From NCBI GenBank assembly GCA_010093705.1, contig MU006094.1, forward strand, positions 1,215,550 through 1,279,549: a DNA stretch of 64,000 bases, read 5' to 3'. Origin of the DNA: Patellaria atrata CBS 101060 (taxonomy: Eukaryota). Of this stretch, positions 9,886 to 64,000 are shown piece after piece. Each line of letters starts with the position of its first letter. The first letter of the stretch is position 1. The notes below the pieces were generated by a model. It was not told where the DNA came from. It did not search any database and saw only the letters and a program-made list of their open reading frames with translations. A program made the translations under genes and the position numbers.

Positions 9886-10048
9886 TGTGAGCGGCCTCTA
9901 GTAATTGTGTTCCAACTATCTAGTCCAGATGCTATCTACAATCAAGATGAAGAAGAAGAGAAAAGTCTGAGGATAGGTTTGAGGGAAATATTACTGGCTG
10001 ATCTTCGGATTCAGGGCATCCCATACCACTAGGCTCTAGCCTGTTACA
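9886..10048. mobile_element. Solo LTR, family A (163 bp), nested in LINE RNase H
   Basis: TG...CA ends (TGTGA...TTACA). 5-bp TSD GCAGG at 9881-9885 and 10049-10053. Removing it restores the RNase H frame. Confidence 0.92.
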
Positions 10049-10738: not shown

Positions 10739-11018
10739 TGTCACGGGTTAGACCCGATAGGTATAAGTACCTTGGATGATCCAGCGGCTTAGCTATGCTA
10801 TACTTAAATTGAACAACTTACGTTGTTCTGGCACTTTCTCTTACATTCTTTCCTTAAGTTTAAGCTCCATGCATGATCCAGTAGCTTAGTCATGTTGTAC
10901 TTTAATAGAACAGCTCACGCTGTTCTGATACTCTCTTTTACTTTCTTTCCTTAAGTTTAAGCTTCATGTACATACAGCAATATACCTTTCAGCTCTCATC
11001 TGAGGTTGAGCCTTGACA
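10739..11018. mobile_element. Solo LTR, family B (280 bp, internal tandem duplication), nested in LINE
   Basis: TGTCA...TGACA ends. TSD CCTGA at 10734-10738 and 11019-11023. Confidence 0.9.
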
Positions 11019-11569: not shown

Positions 11570-12153
11570 ACGCAGCTTCCCGCCATAAATCTCCGCGCTC
11601 TCCTCTTCTGCAACATTCTTGCCTTTACCACCGCACTCCCAGCAGCCACACCCGACACCCCCTCCTACAACAACCCACCGCAAGCCAACCACGTCCCATT
11701 TCTCAGTAGGTAGGCCCTTCCGCACCTCCTAAGTATATGCCTTTCACACCGACGTCGTAACATGCTACGCTTTACCCGCTGGTATGAAGGACGCTACTGT
11801 CAAGGCTCAACCTCTGATGGAAGCTGAAAGGTATATTACTACATGTATATGAAGCTTAAACTTAAGGAAAGAAAGTTTTGAGACAGCATATGCTGTTCTG
11901 CTAAAGTACAGTATTACTAAGTCGCTGGATCATCCAAGGCACTTATACCTATTGGGTCTAACCCGTGACAGCTGCGGCGTTCAGGCTCGAGTGGCCGGGC
12001 CCGTACAACTGCGTGCTGTATACGGAGGCGAAGTGCACGGGTTCGGTATTGCGGATCTCCCCGCATATGGGCCGGACTTGGGTGGCGATACACGGTACGC
12101 GGGTGGAGAATCACGTGCGTAGGTTTAGATGCGGGTTTAAAATTACACCTTGA
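11570..12153 (+). pseudogene. Small secreted Cys-containing (effector-like) protein gene, disrupted
   Basis: Signal-peptide-like (T)QLPAINLRALLFCNILAFTTALP from an ACG. After LTR removal the frame reads CYALPAGMKDAAAFRLEWPGPYNCVLYTEAKCTG...VRRFRC. A stop/frameshift lies near 11710-11750. Confidence 0.6.
11798..11970. mobile_element. Solo LTR, family B (173 bp), inverted relative to the 10739 copy
   Basis: TGTCA...TGACA ends, reverse-complement homology to 10739..11018, TSD GCTAC/GCTGC (1 mismatch). Confidence 0.88.
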
Positions 12154-32413: not shown

Positions 32414-33055
32414 CCTTCACAGTTATCGTGAAATGATCATAGTCGAATCTCGAGAGACTTCGGAACAATGATCTTTACTACTTTCCCGTTCGAAGTTTTA
32501 CGAGTTCCCCGTCCGGTGAAGCGCCTTCAGCTGCCAAGGGAATGGCTGGTGCGCTTCGTTCTAGACTATAAATCTTCATATTCATCAAAGTTCCTATTTT
32601 TTCAGAATTGTATACTTCGTACCTATAGCAGCAAGATTTTGCCTTGTTCGACTATATGTAAGACGATTCCGGGAAGGTCCAGGAAGCGGATCTTTAACAT
32701 CAGACGTGTATTTGCTTCTCTAGCACCAGACGATAAGGAACAGGTAAGTCAATAGAACTACAGGGGAAGGCGTATCGAGGCGCACTCTATAGGACTATAA
32801 GGTACTGGGTATAGTTCTATATTCGTTCAGCCGGGTCTATCTAACGTAGAATTCCTGATTTCTCCGTTTCCCATTTCTCGTTATCATTTAAAATCGTAGT
32901 CCTCTCCTTTTTAGTCCCGTCCAAAGCAATAATTCGCGATTTACGCCATCATAAAGATCCCTTCCCAAGAACTTAAAATATCCGGACTCCCTGCTGGATT
33001 TTGGCCTGAACTAGCAAGGCCAATTCGAAATGAATAAAACATCTCCAATTCAATC

Positions 33056-41833: not shown

Positions 41834-42424
41834 CTAGATAGCACCATTCGTGTACGCCCCTCGCTTCCTTGACTGCATTGCATACATCATTTCTGTCAGT
41901 GTCGGCTTCGTGGAAAGATCAACACGAGGTGGCTCTTCAAGGATAGTACAAAGTCGACGCGGCCTTTCCGTTCCCAAGTACTCGCATCTCGCCAGCTCGC
42001 CAGGCAATTCAATCCGACCCGTGGCTGAGCTACCTCCAGACAGCTCAGCAACCTTAATCTGGGGTTCCGCCTCTGGAACAGACTCGCCATAGTGATAATG
42101 GTTCACGTTTATGACAAGATTTTCTGGCTTAGACATATCCTTAATAAGAACTTTGAGTCTTTCGCACCCTGGTCTCCGGCAGATGATTTGATCTAAAGCT
42201 TCAACCGCGTCCATGCGCGTACGAGGTCTTCTGCTTTTGCCGCAGCGAGAGCATGCCGGTAAGTACACAAGTTGTTCGCTTTCTTGATGTTTTTTAGCAT
42301 CTTTCACTTTCTCCTTTGGCATTGGTAGAGGATGGTCTCGATAGTACGAGGTAGATGAACGGCTTTTTCGGCTCATTCTGCTTGCAATGGAAACGCAATC
42401 TCGGATTGCTGTCAAATTTTGCAT
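41834..42424 (-). CDS. Hypothetical protein with CxxC...CxxxxC zinc-binding motif
   Basis: 196-aa ORF: CSRCG...CRRPGC, INVNHYHY, AELSG/IELPG motifs. Confidence 0.65.
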   Translation of the reverse strand: MQNLTAIRDCVSIASRMSRKSRSSTSYYRDHPLPMPKEKVKDAKKHQESEQLVYLPACSRCGKSRRPRTRMDAVEALDQIICRRPGCERLKVLIKDMSKPENLVINVNHYHYGESVPEAEPQIKVAELSGGSSATGRIELPGELARCEYLGTERPRRLCTILEEPPRVDLSTKPTLTEMMYAMQSRKRGAYTNGAI

Positions 42425-42540
42425 TCTGGTATGTATGTAAGTGACAGTATCGTGTCGAACATTGTGAGCTCTGGTTCTTTATGGAAGCGCGTGGATGGAC
42501 TTCAGGGGGTTCAGGTTTTGACCCCCTCTGAGCAAATACT

Positions 42541-42584
42541 GAAATCGGGCTTCAATTTCAATATAGGGCCCGATTTCTGGACCC
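42541..42584. promoter_or_regulatory. Inverted pair of cargo motif cores in the divergent promoter of 42424(-) and PLP(+)
   Basis: GAAATCGGGC (42541-42550) and its perfect reverse complement GCCCGATTTC (42568-42577), then TATATAAG at ~42592. Confidence 0.5.
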
Positions 42585-42646
42585 AAGAGCGTATATAAGT
42601 TCGAGTCCACCTGCTATCGCTCAAGATCCCATCGTCCACGTTAATT

Positions 42647-44767
42647 ATGAAGCACTGTCAGCACACGAGCTGGCTAAGCCTTTGCTCTGAAGGCAACGAT
42701 ACGTACCTGGTGGTCTCCGATCGCCTTGATACCATTAAAACTCATATTCCTGAGCCAGAGTCCCAAACACCAAGCCTTTTTGTGCTGATTGGCAATAGAG
42801 CGAAATCCGTCGCACTACGCGAGCTTTTTGGAGCGAAGAGAAACCAACGGTTTCTTACAAAGCGAGTCCCAGGCGAAATACACCTTCATGTTGAAGCATC
42901 CAGTATCTTCAACGAAAGGCCTCTACTTATTGCCGATAGTGATATCCCAGCAAAGTCTTTGAGGGCCAAAATCCCTTCTACTAAGTGTCATGAAACCACG
43001 AAGCAGATTGTCCGGAGACCTGGCTCACTCGGCGAGATATCTAGTACCATCTACTCTCAGCTGCTTCAACCATTTGTTGACGTGTTCTGTTTCTTCGCAG
43101 ATGACCTAGGCGGTTTCAAGCAAGTTGCACATCATCTTGCTACGTGGCTTGAGCAGGTTCAAGAGTCGACAACTCTCAGGAGTACTCGCCCACGGGTGGT
43201 CATAGTGACCGAAAAAATCCCCTCAAGCGTGGAAAATGAGAAAGAGGCAAGAAAAGCCTTTTTGTGGCTGCTGAGCGAGGAAACGAAAAGAGATCTGTTT
43301 GAACAGGTTTCGGCAATTGAGATAATTGCACTTTTCCCAGCCGGCGCACTCTCTGTCAATGCTCGCCACAGACTGCTCAAGGAACGTATCATGAGTGGAT
43401 CAGACCAAGTGCGGAAGAGTAGGGAGCAGTCTAGATGTCTGTTCTCTGTGACTCACTTTACTGCGTTCCTTGCGAGTGCATGTGAACAATTCTCACGGGT
43501 TGCAAATGAGCCATTCGATTTTATCAAGGCTTCCCGAGTGGACAATCCGGCACCAGAGGATTTGGATGAGCATTTAGCTAACCTAATGAAACACATTAAG
43601 GATTCTGGAGATCTCACTGCGTTTGCAGCTCCTACCATCGCATCTAGTCTTTTGCTGGATAGCTACCCTCCCAATTCACACTGTAAGTCGTAACGCAGTG
43701 GCCAGTTTGCAAACATATTAACAAATCGATAGTGTTTCCTCCGGAGAAAGTGATGGACACTCTTTATAAAGATTTATTCCCAAAAGAGAGGGTTATCTCC
43801 TTCGCGGATTCGAAAGATGTCATTCTCCGGAGTGGCTTCATTAACCTGGTCCGTACCCATTTGATCAGCTTCTTTGAGCAGCTAACACACGGTCCATCAT
43901 CGGCCGCAGAGATTCACTTCGGCAATCTGAATCGATTTAAATACCATTGGCAAAATATTCAAAGCAGCAGCACCTGTCTCTGCTGCCTACGTCGAAGACC
44001 ACAGTATAACCTATCATGCGGACATATCCTATGTGAGAACTGCGTTCTAATCTTTGGTGACGTTGACGAACACGATCCATGGATGTACAAGATATATCAC
44101 TGTTTCCTTTGTGGAGAAGAAATGCCCGAAGGAGTGAATGTTAAAATCCATCCTCCAACAGCTGGAGTGGGAATTCTCTGCGTTGATGGTGGGGGCGCTC
44201 GCGGCGCGTCGTCCCTTAGGATAATGAAGCGTATTCATGATCGAATCGGTTTGCCAATTCCCTTCCAGCAATTCTTTAAAGTCGCTTTTGGGATCAGTTC
44301 AGGTATGTTCCTGCCTATTTTGCTGATCGACCTACAGCTAACCTTATCCAGGAGGCCTCATCGTTCTAGCTATGTTTGTCAACGGTTGGGGCATTGAAGA
44401 GTCTACTGACACTTTTGAACGACTCGCCAAAGTCGCGTTTACGCCTCGAAAAGTGTCTAAAATCCCGATCTTCCGTAACATCATTGAACTTTTGATATCG
44501 TACTTTGCTGACGGACTCTATGCTCCCGAAAACATTGAAGCGGCGCTGAAACAGGTTTTCGGGAATGACAGAAGCATTTTGGATGTCTCGCATGCGACAA
44601 CTACAGGAACACGTATCGGGCTTCCTGTGGCCACTGTTGGTGGTACGCCGTCTCGCCGTATCTTCACGAACTACAATGGTGTGGGGGAGCGTGTTGAAGG
44701 TCAAGGTACGTCTCACGCGATGCAAATGAACCAAGCCCTGATCAGAGTAGAGGACCGCATCGTAAAC
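42647..44767 (+). pseudogene. Patatin-like phospholipase (Starship PLP type), 3'-truncated
   Basis: MKHCQHTSWL start, RING-like CLCC...CGHILCENC...CFLC, DGGGARG and GISSG (GxSxG). Introns ~43683-43732, ~44303-44351, ~44707-44751. Homology stops ~44767, before the SAAP/DGG motifs. Confidence 0.85.
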
Positions 44768-45133
44768 TGCTGTCAAATTTGTCTGCAGACTTGATTCTAG
44801 AAGCTAAAGAACATCTCCATGACCTAATCCAGAGAGCTGAGTAAATCTTAGACGATTTGGAGCTCGCTCAGGATATTTCGGCATTCTCACAGCACCAATA
44901 CACCCTCTCTAAAGGTTGCAGCACTTCACAGTCTCACGATCGGACCTCAATCTTCAAAACCTCTTCCGGACAACACCCCGATGTGAGGAGATGTCAAAAT
45001 ATGCCGAGCTGAGAGATGCCTCCCAAAGTATTGTTGAGACACAAAGATTGGAGATGCAGTACGTTAAGCCAAGGGCCGTGTACATTAGGAGGCCTACCAC
45101 ATCGGACAGCTCTCAATAGGGAAGGGTAGGGAA

Positions 45134-45201
45134 GGGACCAGTTCTGGGACCTTGGCTGCGTACAAGATGACGATCCGGCTTGTAGTCCTGAAATTGGTCC
45201 C
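45134..45201. promoter_or_regulatory. Inverted pair of cargo motif copies
   Basis: GGGACCAGTTCTGGGACC (45134-45151) and AGTCCTGAAATTGGTCCC (45184-45201), then TATATAT. Confidence 0.45.
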
Positions 45202-46695
45202 CTCTGGTTCGATGCTATATATCTCTCTTATTAGACATGCTGTTCCTCCTAGGAAATAATTTCTGCCAGGTTATGCAAGATCTTCTCTACTTTGAATCTC
45301 AAATAGAGCGGAGGTTTCTCACTACAAACGCAGTCTACAGATACACATGCGATAACACAAACTACGGTTTCAGATCTGGAGTGCCACATCTTTTGTTGAT
45401 CGTAAGAGTAAGAGGTCTTGCTGACGACCAGATTGGTATTATACTCTAATCTGCCGGGAAGCCTATTGAGAATATTTTGCCTGAAGTCCCTAAGCCGCGA
45501 TATAGCGATAGAACATGGAGGAACTCGAGATGGCACATTATACGGCGAATGCTCTTATGCTTATATGCGTTTTATATATATGGAGACATGCAGCGTATCT
45601 GCCGGCTCACAACAAGACCTCTACATGTATATATCCTCGGAGGTATTATAGGAAGGGTGCTTGACTTGCAGAAGCGGTTCTTACTAGCGAACCCGGATAA
45701 GCTAGAAGATCGCGAACCAGATATGCTGGAAAAAGAGATCATGTTGTAGGTGTAACTTAGGCAGTTCCTTATCTTCAGCCGTTTCGACTTCGTCCATAGA
45801 CCCACAATTCAAGTTTGCCTTCCCTTCTGAGACTTCGATGTAACATCTATCTGTTAGACAGTGGAAGGAAGAAGTGATAGTTACTATCTAGCGATCTGAG
45901 AGCTTTCTTATATAGTCCAAGCGTGCAAGGGTGATGTCTGAGAGTGACACTATCACCAACAGTGATTGTATCACGAAGTATAAACATCACAGTCACATAG
46001 GTGAGGGTGTCCTATTCAACACTATCCCGGTGCAACGAGCCACCCGGTGCGGCGAGCCATATCCCTCGGTACATTATCCCAAAGGCAGTCGCAACAACGC
46101 AATTCTATCTATACTCCATCTATTCCTGCTGAATACTATAGCTTGGTATCTTTGAGTGATGTGGACACCTTCAGACTTAAATATCACATTTTTAATCATT
46201 GCTCATTTGCCCGGTCTACACATAGCATCATTCTGAAAAGATCTTCGAACATTCTCGTCACAGCTTCGCCAGCATGCTCTTGTAAGGTTCAGCGTCTCTG
46301 AATGGCGCTGTGTTCGAGATTCCATGTTGGTAAGTTCATGGTCGGAATTATAGAGAGCGATGGGAATTATAAATCGATGAGTGGTGTTGTTGGGGGGACC
46401 AGTTTTGGGACCTGTTGCCGAAATGCTTGTCTATGGAGGGAGGGTTTCAAAGTGCAACCTTATGTCAGTTCGAGAGCTCACAGCCTTCTTGGAGACACAA
46501 TTAGATTTAAGATACGCGATGAGAGGAATCTATTACGATCATCCACAACAGATCACTTGTCGCTTCAGACTTCTACCGTCTAACTCTACTTTAGCTAGCT
46601 TCTTTCTTATCCCAAGAATCATGCAGTGTTATTGCCTCATACTGCTCACAAAGATTGGATACTGAGGTCGTAGAGCTACATGTGGTCGCCCCAGG

Positions 46696-46896
46696 TTAGT
46701 TCTGAGCGAGGAACTCTGCGAAAGATTCGCTTTCTTTTCCAGCTGGCACGCAGATCTCAGCATCATAATCCATCTGCATCTCGTCGAGTCGTTTGCTTAA
46801 TGCCATATGTGCGATGAGGTTTCGCAAATGTGATTCTTTTTGTAGTTTCTGTTCTACAAGGTCTTGAAGATATAGCATCTGGAATAGATATACCAT
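46696..46896 (-). CDS. Small ECM13-like protein (KL..E..LR.LI.H...L motif)
   Basis: 66-aa ORF QKLQKESHLRNLIAHMALSKRL; cargo motif copy 100 bp upstream (46996-47013). Confidence 0.55.
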   Translation of the reverse strand: MVYLFQMLYLQDLVEQKLQKESHLRNLIAHMALSKRLDEMQMDYDAEICVPAGKESESFAEFLAQN

Positions 46897-47218
46897 TGCT
46901 TGAATGTTCAGTATGAAAAATTTTGGTTATCTCTCTGTGAGATTTGAAGTGCATCTCGTCTGACTTTAAAGCATTTGAGCCGGCGAGCTGCGAGAGGACC
47001 CATTTTCGGGACCTTTCGCTCGCAACAGAACCGGGCCTTCAGAAGTCGTTGTGTGCAGCGATGCATCTCCGCGAAGTCCCTTACACGGTTAGGAGGATCA
47101 AACTCAAGACTTCGAAGATTGACTTACGAACTCGTCATGTCATTGTGCCGGTTCTGCGGTCACCCAAAAACTGCCTCTATCGAGTGCAGAGGGATCAAAT
47201 TTTCATTTATCTCATTGA

Positions 47219-48261
47219 TCACAACTGGCCATGCCACCTTCTCCTTTCAGCCGACCACCCTGTAGGTTCTTTCAACAGGAACAACATTGTAGATATCAGC
47301 TTCGTAAGAGCTGCAGTGTAGAGAGCAATCGCTAAATCGACAGTCTGAGTAATGCATGCACCAGTAAAGCTGCCTACAGCCAGACTGAGCAACGAAGCTA
47401 GTCGGTAATCCCGAGCGCTGTTGAAACCTTTATTCAACTGTCCATTTGCCAGAAGGTTGATATAGGTTGATGTTGATACCGATGTCAATTCGGATCTGGA
47501 GAAGTCTCGAACTGTGACGAGTTGAGACGCGTGTAACAGGCTAGAGCCTAGTGGTATGAGCGCGCCCTGCATCCGAAGATCAGCCAGTAATATTTTCCTC
47601 AAACCTGCCTTCAGACTCTTCTCTTCTTCTTTATCTTGATTGTAGATAGCATCTGGACTAGATAGTTGGAACACAATTACTAGAGGCCGCTCACAACGCG
47701 GAGGAAAATGATAGGAAGGATAAGATGACATAGACAGCTGGGCTACCTGGGTCAATCTTAAATGACTGGTAGATGACGCCGGCGGCCCAAATGAGGGTTG
47801 CTTGTGTCAAAGTAGAAGCTACGAGCCATATTCGACGTCTAATACTACGCAGCACTCTCTCAATTTGAGCTGTAGTATATGCGCCGGTAATGAAAAGACA
47901 AAAGCAAACACTGCTGTTACCGTAGTGAAAAGCTTTAGGTGCAAGTCCTGTTGCTCCAATAGAAAGGTATTGCATGTTGCTGATTTGGTTCGAAGTGGAG
48001 CAAGAGAAGGTAAGTAACTGATCATCGGATTAAAAGTGAGCGTCTGTTAAGGGTACCCAAACTCACCACCGAAGCATCTTGTATACCAGTAGCAAGAGTG
48101 AATGTTAAGAGCCCAAGCTCAAGGAATATATTCTCTTGAATATGGTCATTGAGATGTGCCCAAAACGTACTTCTTCCATAAGAGACCGAAGACCTAAGTT
48201 CTCCTTCTTTAAGATTAGTTTCTCGTGATGTGTCGGCGGAAGATGAGTTAAGGATGTTCAT
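47219..48261 (-). pseudogene. DUF1275/YoaK-family membrane protein gene disrupted by a solo LTR
   Basis: LTLATGIQDA, SNQ, WLVASTLTQA, SASQLV...ELTSV.TSTYINL, RDYRLASLLSL.VGSF.GA. Frame restored on LTR removal. Confidence 0.75.
47532..47695. mobile_element. Solo LTR, family A (164 bp), inverted relative to the 9886 copy
   Basis: TG...CA ends. TSD ACGCG at 47527-47531 and 47696-47700. About ten differences from the 9886..10048 copy. Confidence 0.92.
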
Positions 48262-48660
48262 CTAAGCCTGTGGGCCATTCTACATGGACCTTGACAGGAG
48301 TTAAAGATGGCGGGACGCGATCCGTCAAAGTAAGTTAGTGTTCAAGTTCTTCTCAAGTGGAAATTGGGACCCGTCTTGGCCTCAGTGGCTCGTTGAGTAT
48401 CAGCCTTGGGCAGTATGGCACCGTAGCATGTTGATAGCAAAGAAGCATTGTATCTACACTGTTATACTCGTAGGCACAATCCGAACCAGATAGCCATGCA
48501 GTGGCCGAAAAATATCAAAACAACGACGGGTGCAGAACGCGAAGAGCCGGTGTTACGCTATAACAAGAACAGAATCGTACTCTAGGCATCATCACCAATC
48601 TCATTCCCGTCACTCTCTGAATCGATCTCTGCAGTACTCAAGTTAGAATATGGAGTCGTT

Positions 48661-51064
48661 TCAATGGTGCGCGTCGCTTCCACACATACCAATCGGCTCC
48701 GCTACAGTTCCTTGAAGAATTCTGATAGGAGTAGATGCTATGACGTGAAGATACTTTGAAGTATCTCCAAACTCGTCAACTCCGTACCTAAGGCGCTTGG
48801 TGGTGCGTGAGTTGCGCAGGCCCACATCCTCTTTGCCGTTCAAGCGGCCAATGGCGTGAATTACGAACTGGATTCCTCGCAATTCGATGAGAATGTAGAC
48901 GCAGCCGTTGATGACTGGCTTGTCATCAGCATCCAAGCTCGAAACTCCAAAATTTCCAAGTGAGTTGTCAAAGGGAAGAGGAATTCTGTGAATTGGAAGT
49001 TGAACCTAGCCGTCAGCGGTGACTTCTTTGTGATTGAGACCCTTTGTAGGCTCTATGCCAGAAAGATCTTTGTCTGACTTCAGAATCGTGAGGTCCATTT
49101 CCCATTTTCCGTCAGGTGGCTGGGGGATGTAGTACGGTATAGACGATATAACGTCCGGAACCCGCGTGCCCTTTTCCGCGATGACTAACACGTGTTGAGG
49201 TTTGTCTGTTTCACCCACAGCAGCGTCAGGTAGGTCCTGAGGCAAGCCGTAATTGGATTGAAAATCCTGGATAGTACTTCGTATCTGTGGCTGTTGCTTG
49301 AGGCCATCCAGCACGTCCTCACCACTTGCCGCGATAGAATACATGCGTAGCACAAGCTTGAACACTTACCAGGGATTTTTTGGATTATGAAATACCGAAT
49401 ATGGTCCGGCTTTACCGTTGAATCTTGTTTGAAATGGCACGGATGACGCTCCTCCACCAGACGTAGCAATCCACTACAGAAATCAGCAAATGCGAACTCA
49501 ATGCTCATAATGACAGACCTTGAGGGCTGTTCCTGTACGCTTAGTCCATTCGTTAAACCAGCGGATGCTCCAGTTGATCACTCTATCGAAATGGTCGATC
49601 ACCTGCTCTTCAATATCGTCCGCTAAATTGGCTGGCAATGCATAGTTGTTGATCTCAAGCTTCCTTTGCTGGCCCGAGCCAAGTATTGGCTTGTATTTTG
49701 TCAGAAAAGTCGTCTGCATCCAAATCTCTAAGGTTGTTGTAGCTTGGTCCCCGAAAGTCTTCTTCAGCCACTCCGAGGTACCAAGGATGTCTTGAACAAT
49801 TCTGTTGAGATGGCCAAAGCCAACTAATTCTGTAGCGCTGGCGGCAGGCTGGTATCTTTCCGAGTATGCTGTGGTAATATTCTGTCTTGATTAGCAGAGG
49901 GTATAGCTCTCGAAATGTGCAACGTACTCCGGTTGCATCTCTAATATCCAAGACCCCTCCATACTCGGTGTCATTGAGATACACCCCAAGCGCTTTTCTT
50001 TGCTCCACAGACAACGACTTCAAACGGCCATTGATGGCCGCAGTAGGCTCGCTAATGATGTGGACATCAACCTTCCCTTCCCAGCCTGACACATTTTCAA
50101 TGATTGTTTGGTACTGGTAAGAAATGTTCTCTGGCCATTCTGCTGGAAGTCCGGTGTAAACGCGAAAGTACTGTATGTCTGGATTGGCCGTTTTCGACGC
50201 GTCAAAGATCGTACGGAAGAGCCATTCAATGAAGCTCCGATAGATAGCTTTATGCCCAATCTTCTTCTCCTTTTCCCGTTGTATTTTGGCGTGTTGGCTT
50301 GCCGGATTCATGGCGAGTTTCATATTGTCAAAAACAACCACTTCGCCTTCCTTTTCACACACAACGTCCGTATCTGGCCCAAACTCCAAGTCCCATTTTC
50401 CGTCTTCTCTTTTCCTAGCCGCAGCACGAGTCCGTATCTAGCTACTACGCGCCGCGGCCGCTACATTCCAGAAATCGATATCTTCGAGTTCGCCGAGGCC
50501 AAGCACCCGAGATGCTGTAGTGGTGTAGTTTCCAATGTCGGCCAGCACAATCCCAAGGTTCTGACTCTGTCCCTTAGCTGCGAACCTTGCTCTCGGGCGT
50601 GGGACGGCGAAGACTGTTGCGGGATTGGAGCCAATTTGCAATGAATCATGCGCAGCATCAATGCGTTCCGACTTTCTCACACTCTTCGCGCCTCCTGCTG
50701 CATCCTGGGAAGAGCTTAAGCTGTTGATGGCGAGGAATCCATGACCGCTAGCCTCATTCGCCTCGTTCGATGCCATGAGGTTACTCTCCTGTTTGTCGCT
50801 GGTCTTCTTGGCCTCGGAAGTGGCTTGCGTTTGCTGCTTCGCCAGCACCTCCACCTCTTCTCCAATTCGTAATTTGCGTGGTCTGCCTTTGGCATCCTTT
50901 AGCTTGTCCACAACGCCTTTACCGGCTTCCAGGCGAGTCGATCTGCCTCTCGGTCGCGTTGGCTTGGCCACACCTTGCGGCGCACGGCTCGAGTTGGCCT
51001 TCTTCGCAGCGTTTGGAGCCTTTCGGCCGGTCACACGCTTCCCTTCGACTCTTGTCTTGGCCAT
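48661..51064 (-). pseudogene. Hsp70/actin-like ATPase gene with histone-H3-tail-like N-terminus; two in-frame TAG stops
   Basis: LADIGNYTT (phosphate-1), GLPAEW, IISEPTAA, VLDIRDAT (phosphate-2), TSGGGASS (adenosine). Three introns. ORFs 50438..51064/49655..50389 and 49006..49365/48661..48936 are each joined through a single in-frame TAG. Confidence 0.75.
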
Positions 51065-51585
51065 CGTGACTGTAGCAGGTACGAAGAGAAGGGCTCAACT
51101 CAAAACGGCGGCGTTGGAAGATGGGATTTAGTTGCTTCGTCCAGGAAATTGGACACTTGTAATACGGGGTTTTGGAGCCACTTCTGTGCTGACGACAGAG
51201 AAAGCGATTGAAGCGGCAGAGGCGGACCACAGTGAGGTATAAGTATTGCGCCAGGCTGTGAAGTATGGAGGACGAGTTCCTGGAGATGATGAAGCCGAGA
51301 TTGTATCCAAGCCGCTGAAGTTGTTTCGAAAGCTGAGCAATACTCCTGCCCACAGCCTTCTGGACCATGCTTGATGGTACACGATCATCCAATTAATCGT
51401 GACACGTCGGCAAACAATGAGTAACAGTGTTTGAAGACTACTCATTCCTGTGCGAAGCTGCTGGCAAAGCCACTCGGCACAGCAGGAGGCGGTTTGACGC
51501 ATGAAATCCCACTCAGGGCTCTCCATCTCCGCCTGCGGTCGCTGCGTAATGTGGAGGCTTATCGGTCGGCTGCGAGGCTACAGTA

Positions 51586-52240
51586 TTGTCAGTACTTATT
51601 CAGCCCGAGTGTTCTGGAATAAAAGGTGGTCGTCTGAGATCCGCTCGAAGCACCAGCAAAATCTACGTCCCCTCCATGAACCGGCCGATCACTGACGCTG
51701 TTTCCGCATTTCGAATGCTTGCCGAACTATCCTCACCGGGAAGCATCCGAGAGGGAGAGGTTCGTACTCTTAACCGGGTTGTACTATCCACCACTGACAT
51801 GCGTAAGCTTGACTCACGTACTGCGAACCATGACGCCGCGATCGACATTGAGGGCGCTGAGAGTTTGATGTCGCTTCACCTGCAGCAGCGACAGGCCGCG
51901 ACATCCGTTCATGATACTGAAGCTGTTGATGATACTGAAGATCTGGAGAACGTGCAAGCGCAAAGATCGCTCAATCGAGGTAGTTGCAAGGTCCAATCTT
52001 TATCGAATTTACTGATCCGCAGTTAAGGCAAAAAGAGGAAACGGAATGATAGCAGCAGGAGCGGAGCCAAGAATGCTTTGCTGAGGCTGGAACGAGGAGC
52101 GGTACATGTCGAGGGAGTAATTCGCCAAACCATACGAAAGGCATCCCTGATGCTGAGCGAGGATATCAATGATTTTGCGCTCGCTGAAATCAACATCTAT
52201 ATGGGGACACTGTCCAGACTTGTCAGGGCACTTGTAGCGT
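51586..52240 (+). pseudogene. Remnant of a hypothetical gene
   Basis: ORF 51586..52026 continues past TAA as GKKRKR...GAVHVEGVIRQ...NIYMG; upstream part is decayed. Confidence 0.35.
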
Positions 52241-52313
52241 TGCAGAACACGGAATGAATTGAGTTATCTGAATACCTAGACGAACCATGACGTACAATCG
52301 TTGCCGACATGCA

Positions 52314-54215
52314 TTACTCTCCTTCAGCAAGCCTTTTCCTGGCCCTCTTCGATACGCCTCGGCCGGTAAGAGATGTATTGGGGGTGGTGTCTCTTGCGTC
52401 GTCCGTGCTGTGCCCTTGTGGTTGAGAATCGGGCTGACTCGATGCTGAAAGATGATGACGCTCGAGGTCTTGTGAAAGGCCAAAACTTTGGGAAAGTTGG
52501 GGAACGCTGAAATCCAGATCAGCCGGTATTTTATCGATAGCTGAACATAGCCGTTTGAAATGGCTCGGCATCCATATGTCGTAGACGTTCTTGGTGAACT
52601 TGTATGCCGTCCATTTCTCCTTGCCATCCAGGGCTGTGAAGCTGAACTCGTGTATTGGATGACGGTAGTACTTGGTGTCTTTCCCATCAATGACTGGGTA
52701 GTGTCCATAGATTCTCACTGATCTGTGATCATGCGAGATTGAGAAGGCGAGAATCTCCCGATGAAGCTCCATCTCACGGCCAACGAGTCGAAAGAGTTCG
52801 ACGGTAGCTCTTACAGCAAGTGTCATGCTGTGGGCATTCTGTCGATCCGCGATATCGAGCGCTGCAGCACCGCACTTTACCTCACAAGTAAGGAACGGGA
52901 AGTACATGTAGTACGTGGCCATGAAGTACGACTGATCACCGGAGATGAAGTTGCCAATGAATGGGGCAAGCTTGTCGAGCTGCTCTTTGCTGAATGCTTC
53001 CCGTTTGAATCCCACCGAGAAGTCCGGCTGTGGACGCGTCCCTGTCAAGGGAAATGAGTTATTCCAGCCTTCGTTGACACTCTCAGCTAAAATCTTGAGG
53101 GATTTAGCACCGCGTACAGCCAATACTTCCGCCGAAGGAACGATGAGCTGTGAAACATCGCGGATTATTCTTGCTTCATTCTTGTTCCGTATCATTTCGC
53201 AAGTGTCTTCGAACAGTTCATCGCAGAATAGTGAATCGTTGGGGATAGTTTGTCTTGCATCAAGCAAGTGGAGATAGCTTTTCTTGCTAGTCTGCGTGAT
53301 TCCTAAGGCAGGTTTGCCCATAAAACTCCCCTTTGTGGCGAGTAAAGTTTCGTAACGTGCATCTTGATAAGGTGCACTTTTGACCTCTCTTGGCTTTTGG
53401 TCGCTTGGTGTTGTAGAACTCGGCGCTATCGAAGTCGGCGCAGTCGCAGCTGGATCAACAGAGATCAATCCAGACTGCCTTCGGCGAAGGGAGGCGGAAG
53501 ACTTCTGCTTGCTAAGTAGATGGCTCATATTCTTATCGCTCTGTTCGGTGTATCCCTGGGGCCACTTGTGGTGCTTTGTCCAATAGAAAACCGGATCTTG
53601 TCCGTCCTCATCAACTTTGCTTGCTTCCTCTTCCTGACCAACTGAATTGCCAACGACAGATTGATGTCGTCGTGTCCGCTTTCGAGGAGCCTGAGCTGAG
53701 CCCAGCTGAATGGGATCTAAGGTGTCTATCCGTCGCTTCTTCCCTTCGGGTTGCAGGATAGGTTTCCGAGGTCGCTTGGCTCGTCTGACGTCGGTGGTTT
53801 GCTCGGCTTCGGTTTCTCGAGAACGCTTCCGCGTCGCCGCTTTCTGGATAGAGGATACGGTTGCTTGATTGCGATTGCCAGCTCGGAAGCGTAAGCTTCT
53901 TCGTGGCGAATTGCTCCTAACAGCTTGATCCTATGTATTGTTAGATCGCTTTGTAACAACCAATGCCATCACACACTTGCCTCCTGTTGCTTGTTGCCCG
54001 TCTGAGATGTAGACTCTTCTGGAGTCGCCGACGTCTTCACAATGTTGATGTTTCGACGGCGTGTAGGGCGTTTGCGATTCTCGAGATGCACTTCAAGGTG
54101 TTAGAACATGCTCCGTGTACCCAGACACCGATGCGCATATATGCATACCTTTCTCCTCTGAGGGTGGCATGGGCAGTCTCTCCTGGACGGTTAGAGGCTT
54201 CGAACGGACAGCCAT
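52314..54215 (-). CDS. DUF7924-like, PD-(D/E)XK-like fold protein
   Basis: PQPDFSVGF, YFPFLTCEVKCG, ADRQNAHS, FSISHD. Exons 54215-54149, 54090-53981 and 53930-52314 give an open frame; second intron is GC-AG. Confidence 0.8.
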
Positions 54216-55935
54216 TTCGTCTGGGTTGAGATATCGAGCGCTTATGTCTTGCCGCGGGATTTTGTCGCGGAGTTATCTAGCGCAAAAGTGAGATGTATGA
54301 CAGAACCCAACGACAACGCCAAGCCACTTGGATACCGCAACGCACGGGCCCTTACCCCTGCCACTTAGTTGCGGCACCTATCACCACATTTGCGCATGTG
54401 ACTTTTACTTCGTAACTAAGTGATAGTAACACGTTCACTACGCCAATGGAGAACCGCTGAAGCACAATCATTCTGATGATATCTGAACTTACGCCATCGA
54501 CTGGACAGGCTCCGTTCCTGAATGATCTATCTAAATGGGTCGACTTGCTTCTGGATCTCCACCACCATCTACGCAGAAATGCCTGCGGGAATGGCTAGAG
54601 AAGAGCAAGGAGAACGAAGCAGGCTTCAAGAAAGCACCTGGGATTACTACAGCTCAATCAGCACATTAGGCTGCCGTATGCCGTCCATGTCCCTTCTTTG
54701 GAATATCACACGCACTTTTGGAGGAGAACCAGTTCTACTAGTGGGGCATTGTACACCTGCTTCAGCATAGCATGCTCGCATGAATATACAGCTACCTAGT
54801 CATGGTCTCCAGGCAGTAACTGTGCCACGCGGATGCAGTCTTCAGTCTCATCAAGCGCCTGGATATGCTGGCACGGATGAGCAACCTGTTATAGATGAGC
54901 CATCATCATAGGGGTACCAGGAGTCTTGTATCCATTCAGCTTGCGCAGAAGACGCAGTTGTTCTACTATCAGGTCACGCTCTAAAGGTCTGCTAGCACTA
55001 GCTGCCTATACTATGCTTGTTAAGTATCATGCCCTGCTCACGTTGTATTTTAGGCAGCAGAAAGGGGCTTGACAGAACCACGTCCTAACGTTTTTTCTTC
55101 TAGTAAGCATGATTTGACCCTGTTCACACAGTACAATGCGACCCGCTAGTTTCTTACATAGCCCCGCTCAACTATGGCTAATATACCTTTAATGGAGGAT
55201 TTATTCTCCAATTAGATATCTGCAGCTCACCCCTGGATGTCACCAAGAGCTTGTGACTTCTTGAACGTGGCTTTGACGACGACAGACGTCCTGCAATATA
55301 TGGTTCCGACTCGCTCGGAAGGCGTATCGTCAAACAACTCGTTAGTCTTCCATCTCCCGTAGCTGTTCTAGAAGCTGAATTCTTGTATTCTGTTAGCTCA
55401 ATTGCTCCGAACATTGTCGAAATTTCGACAATCATGAATGGTATACTGCAGGATAGCTCCGATCCATTTACGCTCGTCCTCGAGTGGACCGAAGACCCGG
55501 ATAATCGAATCGCTTCATTCGACCCTTGCTCAACGTTCGCTCTAGGCAGCAATTTCTGCACCTGGCCAGATGATATGTACGCTCGAGAAAGAGACGACTC
55601 GTCGAGGTAGGATTCTGGTAGTGACGAGGCATAGGAACGGGTTAGGAAGGCGAGATCTATCCGCACGCGAAAGAGTCAACGTTTGTGATAAGATGTGGCT
55701 GTGGATAGATTCATAGTTTCGATGCTGAATGAGGTTCGCGCACGGAACGCATTCCTGTCAATCTGACGGAGGGCGATACTACGAAGTACTGTGGAGACGA
55801 TCGGATTTAGTAGACGTGAAAGCGATTTGAGCGGCCTAATGCGTCAAGATGGCTCGAAGGAAGTCGCCAACTCTATATGCAAGTAAACGATGAACAGGAG
55901 TCATCCATACCCAAATCAGGGCAATCTGTCCATTA

Positions 55936-58185
55936 CTAAATAATAATGACCATGGCAAGCGATAAGCCCACCGCTGCACTGACTGCTGCATGCTGGAAAG
56001 ACCTGATGATCTTCCGTGAATGAAACATGTACTCGCCCGCCACGTTTTGAACGTCGCCGTATGTGATTTTCTTGATGCCAATGCGTTGTAGACCGCCTTC
56101 CCCATCAACAGCGACAATGCCTACATCGCCGATTCGACCATTAGCTACCTTGTAGTGAGCTATACGGACCCAAATGGCCTCAGTCGGTAACGGATCTAGA
56201 GCCACATCCTGGTGCCAGGTATCCGGCTCACCGCTGTCAGGTATGGCTCGCTGGAATTGATCTCCTTCGTCGTCTTCGTTGCTGAGAATGGGCCTAAGCC
56301 ATTGGAGCTTCTGTCCCGGGAGCAGTCGCACACGCCACATGCCTCGTACAAGAAGTGCCAAGCTATGCGCAGGCCTGGCTTGCAAGCGGCTTTGAAGAGC
56401 CTCGGAGTCCATAGAAGGCGACAGAGGCTCACGATGACCTGGCCCGGCTAGCATTATAGCAGAGTGCTCAGGTTGGATCCGGTATTTCGTGATCTTGATT
56501 GTATCCTCGATGGGAGCAACAGCTGACATCCAAGACCAGGAAGGGGATTCATATTCTGTAGGTCGCTGTCCAATTGAAGCTACTTCCCAGCATAATTCTC
56601 GGACTATAAAAGGGAGCCACATTCCATGAGCATGCTGAGCATTTCCGGCGGCTGCGATGAAGTTCATCAAACCAGAAATCGCGATTGGTCGGTCCTTTTC
56701 ACGTGTCAAGTTACATTTTGTGTAGTAGGATCGGATACCGGACCACGATAACATGAGATTGGCGTTGTCACCAAGAGCCTTGTGCAAGGCCAGCTTGAAG
56801 TTTGCTGGTGCCGACGGATCGTCATCTGGGCGGGTTCGAATACCAAGAACATCGGATTCTGAAGCAGCGCAACATGAGCACTCCCAGAAGAGGCCCAGAC
56901 TGCCGAAGAATAGCGTTCGCCGCGCCATGATCCTCTCTTGGACTACCCACCCACGAGTCTGTAGCGGGGCTTGAGGTGAATCAGGTTCCGCAAGACCAAG
57001 ATTCAAGGTGTTTGTGATCTCGAATGAGGTTCCCGGTATGCGCAGTGGCCGATCATAGAGAGGATTTCGTTCGCTGAAGAGCCCTTCATGACTCCCCGAG
57101 GCATGGAGTGCCGCTAGCGTAAGCATTGATCCCCAGTAGATGCTACCCATTTTCGCTGCTTCGGTGGCCCAATCTGCGGCCGAGTCCTGGATGATGCATA
57201 GGCTGTCTATCCACAGGTAATGGTAACCCAAGGCTCTGGTGAAGATGATCGCGTCCCGGATTGTTCGGGGAAGGGAATCGAGGTCGATTTCCGCTTTCAT
57301 AGCCTCGAGGTTAGACATCTCAAGGCGAACTGCCTTTTGGCTACCCCAAACGTAACTGAGCGTAAGGTAGACAGGCATAGAGGGTAGATCCTGAACCTCT
57401 ACCACTCGCAGATTGCCTTTTGACGAGCCGATGTCAAGATGCAAAAGCCGGGCTGGCGATGCGGAAACAGCCACAGGCTTGACATTGCAACGTGCATCGT
57501 GCTTCGCAAGACAAGTCTGAAGCCACCACTGAGCCAAGTTCAAGGTAGCAGAATCATCTGTACACGGGCATAATGGGCTTTTGGGCACTTCGCCCAGAGA
57601 ATCGTGTCCTCCTAGCATTCCAGAAGACGTCTTTGCTCTGTCCGTTGGCACGACAAATATCATGTTCCAGACTGGTAAGCCTTCAACCTGCAATTCCAGG
57701 ACCGCATCCTGGGGACCTCCAAATTCAATGCGTTGATTTCCGACCATAGCAAAGTCAAAAGTGGAGCGCTTGATAGATATGGCATATCGAGTGTTTCGGT
57801 CAAGGTCGTAAATCCTGTCGAATACAATTACTGCGGACCCCGATCCGGTCTGGTCGTCGAAGATGGATAAGATGTTGCTCGCGCTCGCTCCTTGCAGCGG
57901 CAAGGCCGCGCCGAATATCAGCGAGCATAGGTGACAGCCCTTGGTGGTCGCAGAGAAGAGAGCGCCGAGTTCCTGCCAATGCTGAAGCTGTTGCTTGTTC
58001 GGTTCTGTTCCTTGGTTGAGGCATGTCTGTATGCTACTCATCAGGCTCTTGCAATATGTGCAAAGGGTGCCTTCAGTCCAAAGCACTGACATAGCATTTC
58101 CAGCATTGCCGTCTGTGTCTTGTGATAGTGCATTTTGCCGGGACCTGAAATGGTGCTTAAGCTTCGCGAATAAGCGGTTGCGCAT
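55936..58185 (-). CDS. HET-domain (heterokaryon incompatibility) protein
   Basis: PARLL, YLTLSYVWG, LPRTIRDAI, YLWIDSLCIIQD, MGSIY, RGWVVQER, PSWSW; 749-aa intact ORF. Confidence 0.92.
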   Translation of the reverse strand: MRNRLFAKLKHHFRSRQNALSQDTDGNAGNAMSVLWTEGTLCTYCKSLMSSIQTCLNQGTEPNKQQLQHWQELGALFSATTKGCHLCSLIFGAALPLQGASASNILSIFDDQTGSGSAVIVFDRIYDLDRNTRYAISIKRSTFDFAMVGNQRIEFGGPQDAVLELQVEGLPVWNMIFVVPTDRAKTSSGMLGGHDSLGEVPKSPLCPCTDDSATLNLAQWWLQTCLAKHDARCNVKPVAVSASPARLLHLDIGSSKGNLRVVEVQDLPSMPVYLTLSYVWGSQKAVRLEMSNLEAMKAEIDLDSLPRTIRDAIIFTRALGYHYLWIDSLCIIQDSAADWATEAAKMGSIYWGSMLTLAALHASGSHEGLFSERNPLYDRPLRIPGTSFEITNTLNLGLAEPDSPQAPLQTRGWVVQERIMARRTLFFGSLGLFWECSCCAASESDVLGIRTRPDDDPSAPANFKLALHKALGDNANLMLSWSGIRSYYTKCNLTREKDRPIAISGLMNFIAAAGNAQHAHGMWLPFIVRELCWEVASIGQRPTEYESPSWSWMSAVAPIEDTIKITKYRIQPEHSAIMLAGPGHREPLSPSMDSEALQSRLQARPAHSLALLVRGMWRVRLLPGQKLQWLRPILSNEDDEGDQFQRAIPDSGEPDTWHQDVALDPLPTEAIWVRIAHYKVANGRIGDVGIVAVDGEGGLQRIGIKKITYGDVQNVAGEYMFHSRKIIRSFQHAAVSAAVGLSLAMVIII

Positions 58186-58905
58186 GATGGGGAATGACTC
58201 GACTAGGAGGATGGGTGACTTCGAATATAGCAGGAAAGATAGAGTCTACAGCACTTAAAGTACTACGAAAAAGGAAGGGCTGAGATGCCGTGAATGCCAA
58301 GGCCGCCAACCGAACATGCATACTCCTCAGGTTGGACGAGCTGAGCAGCTGCGGTATGCCGGTTGGATCGAGGCCCACAACAACGAGGCTCGTAGCTCTA
58401 CCGTTAGCCAGCCTTGAAAAAGTAGCTCTGAAGCGCTGCATAGAGCAAAGTGGACTTGTGAAACCTACACATGGCAGTGTTGTGAAACCTGATCACCACA
58501 GCGCTTTGCCACATCAAGAAGACTGCCATAGCCGTCCTATTTGAGCGGCCATTGCGGTCCACATTCGGGCTTCGAGCAGCTTCATGGCTTGTGATTGATT
58601 GCCGTGTCATCGGGCGTCCGCAGGCGTCATTAATCGATGAGCAGATAGGAGACTTGTGAATGTGAGATTAAAGGTGTAATATACCTTATAGGGAGTCCAG
58701 GCGCTCCACTTCACCCGTGCCCCACACCCGCGGAGTGCGTCCTGCTGCCCAATGGACTGCATGTCCAGTCCCGAAGATTCTAAAGTGACTCCAAATGTTC
58801 AGCAAACATAGAATACCTCCCAGAATACAGCGCTAGCCTCCAATTGCACGCCAACATAGTGATGGTACACATCCCCAGGAGCCTTCTCAACATCGCGCGA
58901 CGAGC

Positions 58906-60184
58906 TCAGTAAATGCCGGAGCTAGGAATCGGACCCGCCTTCTTCATCTTCTCAAGCGGATCCTTCCCATCAAACGACGCCTCAATCCTCTCCTTCTTCG
59001 TCATCTTGGTGATATCGTAGTTTGAAGGGCCAATCTTGAAGCCTCCGATCCGCTGGCGCGCGAACTCATTCCACTGCGGAGACAATCATTACGGGCATGT
59101 ACTAGCGACAAGAGGGGCAAGTCTTACATGCTTGACGAAGTTGAACTTGTCCTTTGCGGCGGGCTTCTCAATCAGCTTGAGCTGCGCCTGCTTGAGATCT
59201 GCGACTTTGGAGAATCCCAATTCCGGTGTGAAGTCGTAAGGTCCGGTGATTTTGATGTTGAGCTTGTCGGCCAGCTTGTGGATCATGGCAGGGTACTGCT
59301 CAACGTCCTTTGTCCGAGCGCAGCTTAGGGAGTCTGCATGCCCAGTGAGAAACTCGGTGTAGATGGCGAGAATGACACCCACATTCGGTACAGCATCGAC
59401 GAGCTTCTCCTTCTCGAGAGGATTGAGCATGGCGAGGATAGCAAGGCAGATGATGCCAGCCGTCTCGCTGACGCCTTCGCCATCGTCTATGTCTGTCAGG
59501 GTTGGTTAACATGGCGCTGCTCGTCTATCAATTCGGATTGGCAGACTCACGAGCCCACACGCCGTTCAGCTCGTCCACGTGGTGTACGAACAACCAGGCA
59601 AAGGACTCAATGTAAGACCATAGCTTCCCAGTCGATGGGCTCGCCTTCTTGAACTCCGTTGCGAATGCCTTGAAGTGAATCTTGATCACTTCATCGATGC
59701 CATAGCCTGTTCAATGTCAGTCTTCAATGACCATGCGAATCGAACCATTGAACATACCATACGTATCATTGTAGAAATACATCCCCACGCGCTCCACATC
59801 ACGCTTCTACAACGCCACATCCATATCCACAAACATCTTGTGCGCCTCATTGCTCACGATCCAGATGCAGTCAGGCGCCTCCTCAGGCTTCTTCCTCCAG
59901 ACTTTCTCCTTAGCAGCATTGTGCTCCTTGTCAAGCTTCTCGAGCTCTTCTTCGGACATCTCCTCCATTCGCTCCTCATCGTACTCACGGTGGAGGTCCC
60001 ACACGGGGCGTCCCAAAGTCAGGAATTCCAGACCGATTGGGGACGCGCTAGAGCTGCCATTGGACTTGCTGTTGGTCTCTGAGCTAGGAGTATTCTCCCT
60101 GTCAGATGCATCCTTCGAATTTGATCGTGAAGCTGGCTTGCCCAATTGAGGGTCGCTCTTCTTCTTTGTGGTTCGCTGTGGCAT
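58906..60184 (-). pseudogene. Hypothetical protein gene (multi-exon) with a nonsense codon at 59807
   Basis: RPVWD...KKPEEAPDCIWIVS...*KRD...MYFYND, LWSYIES, DDGE, C-terminal YDITKMTKKER...FDGKDPL; paralog of 62384. Confidence 0.65.
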
Positions 60185-62383: not shown

Positions 62384-63297
62384 ATGCCCCCAGCTCGAAT
62401 CATCGGAGGCCCGCCTGTGCCGAAACGTTGAGGAAAAGAGAACCATGTCTTCGAATCGGATCGTCTGAAGCACAACGCCAATGCCAGCAAAGCGAAGGAA
62501 GTGCAGAGCGGACCGGCATCGAGTTCTTCCAGGGAGCCGCTGGCTGAAGTGCGCAATGGGAAGCCTAGATCCACCAAGCCGGCGGCCAACAACGGTCATC
62601 GTCCCGCGGGTATGCATCCTGATTTTATCAAGATGCTGGAAGAGAGCCGTAGGAAGCGTGAAGCCGCGGAAGCAGTCGAGCAAGCAGCTCGTGAAAAGCA
62701 CGAACGGGAGCTGGACGCCGAAAAGGACTATGTGACCATTGGTCGGCCGTGGTGGGACTGGAGTCGCGAGCATGATCTTGGCTTCTTCTCTGATACCCCT
62801 AAAGAGAAGCGGGAAGAGCTTACCAGAGAGTACGAGAAGCAGAGAGTCACTTATTCGAATAAGCCATCTGCAGAATTCCCGGAGTGGAAGTGGGTCATGA
62901 GCAAGCGTGCGACGCTGATGCTAGAGGACTTCGATGAGCTTCTCAAGAAAAGAGATCCAGACGAGTACGATGTGTACTTTGGGAGCAACTTCTTCGGATA
63001 CGGCGTTCAGGAAGTCATCGACACGCACATGCAGTCCTTCTTTGAGGAGTACCGCAAGGGTAATTCCAACACGCTTCTGCTATGGAGTTACATGGAAGCG
63101 ATGGCCTTCTTCCTCGCTGGCGGCAGCGGTGCGATGCACGCTTGGTACAGTGAGTACACAACATGAGCGGCTCGAGCATTTCTGGTCTGAAACTGACTCC
63201 TTGCAACAGTGTGCGATGACAGCGAACGCAACTTCGAGCAATTGCTCATCATCGGAGTGGCTCTCCTCACCATGTTGAACACATTCGAGAAGGAGAT
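62384..63297 (+). pseudogene. Paralog of the 58906..60184 gene; early TGA and 3'-truncated
   Basis: ATG 62384 is in frame with ORF 62501..63166 through a TGA at codon 16. RPWWD, KPSAEFPEWKWVMS, KRDPD, LWSYMEA, DDSE. Ends abruptly at ~63297. Confidence 0.65.
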
Positions 63298-63299
63298 CT

Positions 63300-63670
63300 A
63301 GAACTCTGTACCCAACATGGGCAGAACTAACTCCTCGAATACTGCGAAGATCTGGGCCACCACGGCGAGCAAAGCGCTTGAGCTGCCGGACTAGACTGCC
63401 CTCAATATCACGCCCCGGGCGCGGTTGGAGGGCAATGGGTTGAACAGCCCGTCTGTGGAATTCTCGAAGCGCACGACGACAGAGCGGCACCCGGGAAAGC
63501 TTGTCCCAGTACTCTGGAGGAGTCCTGCTCTGCGATGGATATGGCGGCTTTTGGCGTTTGGCAGGTGGTTGTGGTTGTGGTTCCGATTCTGGCTCTGCTG
63601 TTGGCGCTGCTTCGACTCGTCGTTTTCGTTTTCGACTTTGAGACCTCAGCTCTTGCTTCAAAGGCACCAT
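63300..63670 (-). pseudogene. 5' part of a 'WDxLSxV.L.RRALRE / FARRGGPDL' family gene (DUF7924-related), truncated
   Basis: PPEYWDKLSRVPLCRRALREFHRR and LKRFARRGGPDLRSIRG, then a GTTAGT donor whose intron runs into the opposite-strand pseudogene. Confidence 0.6.
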
Positions 63671-64000
63671 TGGTCCTGGACAAGTGGTGGGGGGGTTCTA
63701 TAGATATCGACATTGGGAGTTTGCTTGCGCGCCGTGAAATTGTGGAACTGCGATGGGGGAGCATTGCAAGTCTTGGCGGGTGCTTAGCAGTGGCGATGAC
63801 TCACGGACTGCCTGCAGCTGCGTATCAATTGGCGCGCGTTGCTCTAGCCCCCAGCTATTAATCGGGAGGGTATGCGCTAATATTTAGTGCGACTCCTCTC
63901 GGATTAGGCCTGTCGCAGCACGCGCCTTCAACCCACGTTCTCTTCATTCCTGCACACCACCATTGCAAGCTTTGCGGAACCTGGTGAAAGCGCGCAATTG

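Follow-up and report, generated by a model that had tools for sequence, protein, structure and literature searches.

Can a protein carried by fungal accessory DNA begin with a working imitation of the histone H3 tail? The question is raised by a stretch of 64,000 nucleotides from Patellaria atrata CBS 101060 (the window hereafter), where a minus-strand frame (51064 to 50438) starts MAKTRVEGKRVTGRKAP and aligns with the H3 tail. The first-pass annotation took this N-terminus for an H3 tail mimic on an Hsp70-like ATPase borne by a mobile element, which would act on chromatin readers and writers as a decoy or as a targeting module. The likeness, the ATPase and the mobile setting are borne out by our analysis; the decoy is not. 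We favour, if not strongly, a tail for nuclear import and DNA tethering, with incidental H3 likeness, on a horizontally moving ATPase.

The gene corresponds to record M501DRAFT_991901 of P. atrata, and full-length relatives occur in Venturia, Pseudovirgaria and Sticta. A contig from another holder of the gene (X5, a different strain), classed as RNA by the tool's guess but spliced, removes four introns at exact GT..AG pairs and gives a spliced gene of 761 codons, all on the minus strand. Exon 1 (49928..51064) holds the tail, the linker and the first ATPase lobe. It is followed by intron 1 (49927–49882), exon 2 (49519..49881), intron 2 (49518–49474), exon 3 (49370..49473, with TSGGGASS at 49464–49441), intron 3 (49369–49325), exon 4 (48690..49324), intron 4 (48689–48629) and exon 5, which runs to the natural stop (48582..48628). 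Two premature TAG codons stand in the exons, codon 209 (50440–50438; Gln in homologs) and codon 641 (49008–49006, in exon 4; Trp in homologs), and the remaining stops of the raw frames fall inside the four introns. Because these introns are confirmed by another holder's RNA, both TAGs are true nonsense codons, as had been stated at first. The ATPase gene of the Patellaria strain is thus a pseudogene, whose product could at most be a 208-residue stub. The run X1, which is probably the source and so not independent, shows zero differences over 47668–55296. The NCBI model (P0002), which skips both stops with short introns, was rejected because X5 lacks such introns. The start at 51064 is supported by an in-frame stop just upstream and by X5, which has no intron in 49928–52209. 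An overlapping frame (51392–50919), open in the related locus L032 and stopped in L034 and L035, was not treated as a gene.

The Hsp70/actin-like ATPase claimed to lie behind the tail was confirmed at the level of fold on an intact homolog (P0003) by Foldseek, VIA and Atlas. The top Foldseek matches are the Hsp70 nucleotide-binding domain (NBD), MamK and MreB, with E values of 1.5e-4 and up. VIA gives Z scores of 10.3–10.4 to Sse1, Hsp110, Ssz1 and Ssb1, with rmsd 3.4–4.7 over 161–191 residues (for Sse1, Z 10.4 and rmsd 3.6 with 177 aligned). Atlas neighbours are ascomycete 'actin-like ATPase' clusters at 0.94–0.95, of whose members 18% and 53% carry PF00012. The evidence for an actin-like fold covers approximately residues 155–384 of P0003 only; the model is confident over about residues 160–335, and pLDDT is mostly below 50 in the C-terminal half. 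The tail of the intact homolog is modelled with low pLDDT and no secondary structure, and the AlphaFold model of a 367-residue fragment reaches a pLDDT of 32.5. No Pfam family matched the homologs P0003–P0005 at E≤0.01, and sequence and profile searches of the PDB with the ATPase found nothing; only the fold search matched. Identity to solved structures is 10–16%. The motifs DxGN, [SN]ExxAA/EPxAA and DxGxxT are present throughout the family, and we take DxGN, EPxAA and DxGxxT to be the phosphate-1, catalytic Glu and phosphate-2 motifs. In Patellaria they appear in exon 1 as DIGNYTT (50539–50519), SEPTAA (50053–50036) and DIRDAT (49948–49931), where Arg replaces the Gly that the homologs carry in phosphate-2. 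Lobe I shows dN/dS of 0.20–0.23 against L032 and L034 (L035 offers only 12 codons there). The nearest family type is presumably that of fungal PF00012-bearing Hsp70-like proteins, similar to HSPA12. The protein would work like a nuclear-targeted Hsp70-type ATPase, with predicted ATPase activity.

The likeness of the N-terminus to H3 is real. The basic, disordered tail (50945..51064, minus strand) is collinear with H3 1–40: its residues 1–37 hold 17 identities besides Met and two 2-residue gaps, in register from the initiator, with TGRKAP at 51031–51014. The H3 reference was the commonest tail among the H3 proteins fetched. The alignment reproduces the identities first listed (A1, T3, T11, G12, K14, A15 and P16), the K/R swaps at positions 2, 4, 8 and 9, and the replacements S10V, K27S and K36A. 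The pair scores 59 (p=0.00065, 20,000 shuffles), residues 1–16, anchored, give p=0.0002 (5,000 shuffles), and the tail is the top-scoring of 813 ATG-started 41-mers from the window and L032–L037, where the best score outside the ATPase family is 38 (809 such 41-mers). An H2A-type tail, used as decoy comparison, scores 22 (p=0.83). For one single comparison, then, the likeness goes beyond composition, and it is no quirk of the Patellaria copy, since the majority tail of the family scores 63. With shuffles beaten and the start upheld, the H3 likeness is not to be dismissed outright.

Although the tail beats its shuffles, composition-adjusted BLAST scores it at 42, where H3 against itself scores 206, with E=1.3 for 450,000 residues, about the N-termini of one proteome, and E=14 for 5 million residues, about one proteome (unadjusted, 0.003 and 0.034). 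Once corrected for composition, the match has no significance at proteome scale. HHalign of the family tail profile with H3 gives a probability of 38.7%, a score reached by 2 of 200 column shuffles; in a further test of the family profile 3 of 5,000 shuffles reached its score. For the divergent subfamily HHalign gives 4%, and its HMM is beaten by only 15 of 5,000 shuffles. By segment, residues 5–29 alone give p=0.042, shuffling around an unchanged MAKTR and GVAKPTR gives p=0.023, and residues 17–29 do no better than shuffles (p=0.35). Two of the three annotated full-length homologs score only 40–41 (p 0.06–0.08). H3 is absent from the PDB matches of the tail at E≤10 (phmmer). Pfam Histone matches none of the first 45, 80 or 208 residues at E≤1, in agreement with the claim that no histone fold follows, and the positive control P0057 matches it at 6e-47. 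In a search of longer proteins with the H3 tail, the 120 matches listed, of 2,456, were all tandem histone arrays, so that this search says nothing on H3-tail fusions. Elsewhere, a giant-virus contig (L016:1501–1938) encodes a 145-residue protein with 22 H3-tail residues at its start and no histone fold, and H3 genes on six viral contigs (L008, L010, L011, L021, L022 and L027) show, by pattern match, a tail insertion of 13–17 residues after the K27 region.

Conservation was followed in a set of 30 different N-termini, each alignable with the Patellaria copy over its first 100 residues; this filter leans towards close relatives and left out P0008, P0009, P0031 and P0052. The H3-like sites are no better kept than the rest: conservation is 0.70 at H3-identical positions and 0.72 at the others (p=0.65), and dN/dS is no lower in the tail (0.48–0.61) than in the linker (0.36–0.47), with 0.30–0.65 in the 32 codons after the tail, ratios that rest on few changes (4–10) in broken copies. 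Because many of the compared copies are broken, both tests are blurred and of low power. None of the 30 shares a 5-mer with H3 or carries ARK[ST] or AR[TS]K, and lysine stands at position 4 in two and at position 9 in two. The spacing named at first as a mark of the mimic is kept in part: TGxKAP is found in only 6/30, but G[VI]xKPxR in 16/30 and the looser GVxK[PS] in 25/30. Within GVxKP, K is kept in 28/29, P in 26/28, G in 26/29 and V in 24/29. Among H3 positions K14 (25/28), K23 (21/29) and K37 (28/29) are kept, and G12 (16/28), P16 (14/28) and P30 (1/29) vary. Short H3-like 4-mers occur in other registers in 5/30 relatives. In an ATPase-lobe tree, limited to 22 rows that contain the tail as well as the lobe, H3 scores are 40–65 in one shallow clade, 31–42 in its sister group and P0009, and 17–35 in the outgroup. 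The likeness is therefore confined to that shallow clade; in the sister subfamilies no more than MAK.. and GVxKP is left, and the middle no longer aligns. Synonymous divergence to L032 and L034 is 0.10–0.25 in tail and linker (50400–51000) and 0.39–0.53 in the ATPase lobe (49930–50560), which reflects either mosaic copies or uneven mutation.

The best-kept motif of the tail, GVAKPTR (50954..50974, minus strand), is a candidate IK-type nuclear localization signal (NLS). The IK-NLS consensus of importin-5/Kap121 is V/I-x-K-x1-2-K/H/R, and it fits 22/30 tails, a weak indication for so short a motif. In the long frames of the window, GVxKP-type motifs number 4 against 0.93 expected (p=0.02), a count that includes the ATPase gene itself. 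The H3 tail is likewise a K/R/A/T/G-rich import signal, which would account for the likeness: GVAKPTR parallels H3 34–40, and importin-5 (Imp5) binds H3 residues 11–27 and 35–40 (PMC7752055). PMC9311884 tabulates the Pho4 signal. The Kap123 consensus, given as small-K-small-X(6+)-K in PMC5677370, is satisfied by 1/30 tails only, and the K14/K23 mode of import is for that reason unsupported.

A second motif points to DNA. Motif matching finds an AT-hook core, KGRPRK (50873..50890, minus strand), and a related RPRGRS (50956–50939, minus strand). Of the 28 homologs whose N-extension is long, 14 have the core, and it stands in register in relatives of 22–26% identity that lack the H3 likeness; it thus extends to more distant relatives than the likeness does. 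It is altered in the annotated full-length homologs P0003 and P0004. Pfam AT_hook stays below its cut-off of 17.4 bits, with 9.9–13 bits (E 0.1–1) in P0009, P0031 and P0039 and no match for the Patellaria copy. Judged by these motifs, the tail would serve nuclear import and DNA tethering.

Carriage of the gene by mobile DNA, as proposed at first, is supported by shared non-coding DNA with sharp edges, by near-identity across fungal classes and by a discordant tree. A block that the window has in common with L032 and L033 (48598..54298) shows 78–87% DNA identity, non-coding parts included, and breaks off sharply at both ends, identity being about 41% outside. Its open DUF7924 frame (52314..53930, minus strand; E 4e-115) leads to a PDDEXK_12 cluster at 0.88, and its PD-(D/E)XK nuclease-like nature can be taken as a lead only. 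DUF7924 and the ATPase are linked in L032, L033 and P0006, and in Neurospora DUF7924 ranks with the families whose copy number varies most (PMC13412767). Between the two genes lies a small divergent one (51586..52258, plus strand), with similar frames in L032 and L033; the putative model has an uncertain start and probably an intron from 51980. An intron at 52210–52275 is downstream of the DUF7924 stop, in the 3′ untranslated region, and the same RNA contig extends over the intergenic DNA as far as the ATPase gene, which hints at read-through rather than a proven single transcript. L032 (3906–11961) and L033 (2413–10465) also have 8,056 bp in common at 99.7%. Their left flanks differ, an inverted pair of 9 bp lies close to the ends, and the right junction falls at a contig end; the segment may be a smaller mobile unit with DUF7924 at its head. 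It includes a MITE-like insert of 333 bp (L032:4850–5182) whose terminal repeats measure 30 bp.

Relatives of the ATPase occur in the Dothideomycetes, the Lecanoromycetes and the Sordariomycetes. Patellaria, of the first class, and Sticta, of the second, are identical at 36 of 40 tail residues and at 105 of the 112 linker residues that align; the disordered regions of ordinary cross-class orthologs are usually far less alike. The ATPase-lobe tree is likewise discordant with class, as Venturia and Pseudovirgaria group with Sticta (95/89) apart from Patellaria. Such discordance suggests horizontal transfer, though paralogy is possible as well.

The surrounding island was traced in further runs: X4 holds 42000–55296 and X3 holds 44766–55292, each with few differences; the extent in common with X4 is at least 13 kb, and the left end lies farther out than the DNA compared. 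Runs X3–X5 do not cover 55823–60000, to which no evidential weight was given. Position 55296 is unproven as an element end, since loose ends at that point go on resembling the window and the contig breaks are explained by a second copy of the stretch. X1 has this second, diverged copy of 54837–55297 some 10.6 kb farther right, beyond the window. The plus-strand frame at 55257–55607, which has no Pfam match, looks to us like a decayed piece of a hydrolase-type NLR. Nearby are a HET gene and a patatin-like gene in exon pieces (42599..44794, plus strand; Patatin E 0.037, below cut-off), a Starship auxiliary type. A solo-LTR-like insertion with TG..CA ends and a 5-bp target duplication (47532..47695) interrupts a DUF1275 gene and is absent in X3, X4 and X5. 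Together with the changed phosphate-2 Gly, this hit on a neighbour gene indicates that the cassette is decaying in the Patellaria strain. A second copy of the 164-bp element at 9886–10048 is 93% identical and has a different 5-bp target duplication; the element reaches very high depth in X1. Other observations in the window are a basic N-terminal ORF (63080–63697, minus strand) with no Pfam match, which we assume to resemble another fungal nuclease-like repeat family; an ORF of 1,278 residues (28580–32416, minus strand), also with no Pfam match, with a long Q/P-rich N-terminal half and repeated Cys-rich units; and a 97-bp tandem duplication (10776–10968) with a further inverted copy near 11798–11970.

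The transposase or captain was not found. DUF3435 captain, DUF3723 and ferric reductase were absent from the scanned frames (those of at least 78 residues over 32.5–60.5 kb, and those of 48–77 residues over 34.3–42.7 and 44.7–47.3 kb), and a captain could have been lost, could be broken up by introns or could sit beyond the window. No terminal repeats were seen in 47–56 kb, and RIP indices gave no RIP signature in the window. Since no captain was found, the cassette is called Starship-like cargo and not a Starship.

Several readings of the tail compete with the one we favour. Plain chance would make it the low-complexity basic end of a linker, with general affinity for DNA or RNA and neither mimicry nor an import motif under selection. 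Much fits this: the composition-adjusted E of 1.3–14 at proteome scale, the tail without a histone match in the PDB or Pfam, the H3-like 4-mers in other registers, residues 17–29 indistinguishable from shuffles, and tail dN/dS near 0.5. Chance does not explain why GVxKP and MAK persist in subfamilies whose middle no longer aligns, or why 28/29 retain the lysine that corresponds to H3 K37, and we think it unlikely. Alternatively, an ancestral gene may have taken a real H3 tail, kept the import residues and lost the modification sites. An alignment that stays in register from the initiator Met and needs only two short gaps agrees with such erosion, as do the true fold-less H3 tails that exist elsewhere (L016, for example) and the kept residues, which fall in the importin-binding segments 11–27 and 35–40 of H3. 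Against an eroded capture, no relative stands much nearer to H3 (the best scores 65; H3 self-score 206 by composition-adjusted BLAST), no 5-mer in common with H3 survives in any of the 30, and the sister and outgroup clades are less H3-like rather than more, which suggests a late origin of the match. Such a capture is improbable.

A shade less probable still is a selected H3-tail decoy that binds K14/K23 acetyl-transferases and readers of the K36 region, escapes methylation at K4, K9, K27 and K36, and shields the mobile block from silencing. It can draw on the nominal significance of the match, on the retention of K14, K23 and K37, on an AT-hook and mobile context that suit a chromatin role, and on the recruitment of chromatin domains by transposons, reported in bioRxiv 10.1101/2021.11.30.470311, whose pertinent passages concern domains and not tails. 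Against it, G12, P16 and P30 vary, the H3-matching sites show no excess constraint (0.70 vs 0.72; tail dN/dS 0.48–0.61), and two of the three annotated full-length homologs match H3 at p 0.06–0.08. The very residues that readers and writers recognize are replaced, with ARK[ST]/AR[TS]K and H3 5-mers both at 0/30, so the original decoy or targeting claim is left unsupported. The protein is not a histone, and three sequence tests of histone mimicry go against it. The same low standing goes to a bolder version, a 'methylation-blind' H3 tail on the ATPase of a spreading cassette, which would keep the importin and K14/K23 acetyl-transferase faces with the silencing sites swapped and, with the AT-hook, dock on the element's chromatin to draw activating enzymes or shield the DUF7924 nuclease.

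For the import and tethering reading, which we prefer, the following course can be proposed. The tail would be the start of a basic disordered extension of about 170 residues on a divergent Hsp70-like ATPase, which probably travels among filamentous ascomycetes in an accessory cassette with the DUF7924 nuclease-like gene, perhaps by a Starship-like carrier. GVxKPxR, as an importin-5/Kap121-type signal, and the scattered K/R residues would bring the ATPase into the nucleus, where the AT-hook may hold it on AT-rich DNA and where it could serve the cassette proteins as a nucleotide-dependent chaperone or switch. The H3 likeness would then come from a single shared motif and, in one shallow clade, from a collinear match by chance, an example of an import signal passing for a histone mimic. 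Were the mimic reading correct, fungal mobile elements would have a testable route to evade heterochromatin. Literature searches, whose scope left aside most subscription journals and supplements such as Starship cargo tables, found no paper on this ATPase family and none on proteins of fungal mobile elements with H3-like tails, and those on fungal mobile elements found no anti-silencing module of the H3-tail kind.

Comparison with known systems places the protein between several of them. Like the histone mimics influenza NS1 (H3K4-like) and SARS-CoV-2 ORF8, it belongs to a selfish element and carries an H3-like stretch at its end without being a histone. Those mimics, however, keep a modifiable lysine in an exact short motif, and the published screen demands an exact 5-mer around the modified residue (both from PMC11738798), whereas the Patellaria tail has K4, K9, S10, K27 and K36 all replaced and no shared 5-mer. 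With the H3 import signal and the IK-NLS it shares the parallel of GVAKPTR to H3 34–40, of which Imp5 binds 35–40, but the two-lysine consensus of Kap123 is missing in all but one of the 30 tails. With Starship cargo and degraded Starships it shares the occurrence in Pezizomycotina, the cross-class near-identity, an island of at least 13 kb and the neighbouring patatin-like and HET genes, typical Starship company (PMC9156397 and PMC13486527). It differs in the lack of DUF3435, DUF3723 and ferric reductase in the scanned frames; the term 'degraded Starship' calls for at least three auxiliary gene types (PMC9156397), and only patatin (weak) and HET stand near the ATPase. With the Hsp70/actin superfamily it shares lobe I, which superposes on Hsp70 and Hsp110 NBDs and on MreB, and the retained nucleotide motifs. 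Its homologs P0003–P0005 go unmatched by Pfam at E≤0.01, while some members of the Atlas neighbour clusters carry the PF00012 of canonical Hsp70; it differs from the superfamily in its long basic N-extension with an AT-hook and in its seat in mobile accessory DNA. The likeliest reading thus adds to the cross-class fungal cargo an undescribed family of nuclear, AT-hook-bearing Hsp70-like proteins linked to DUF7924.
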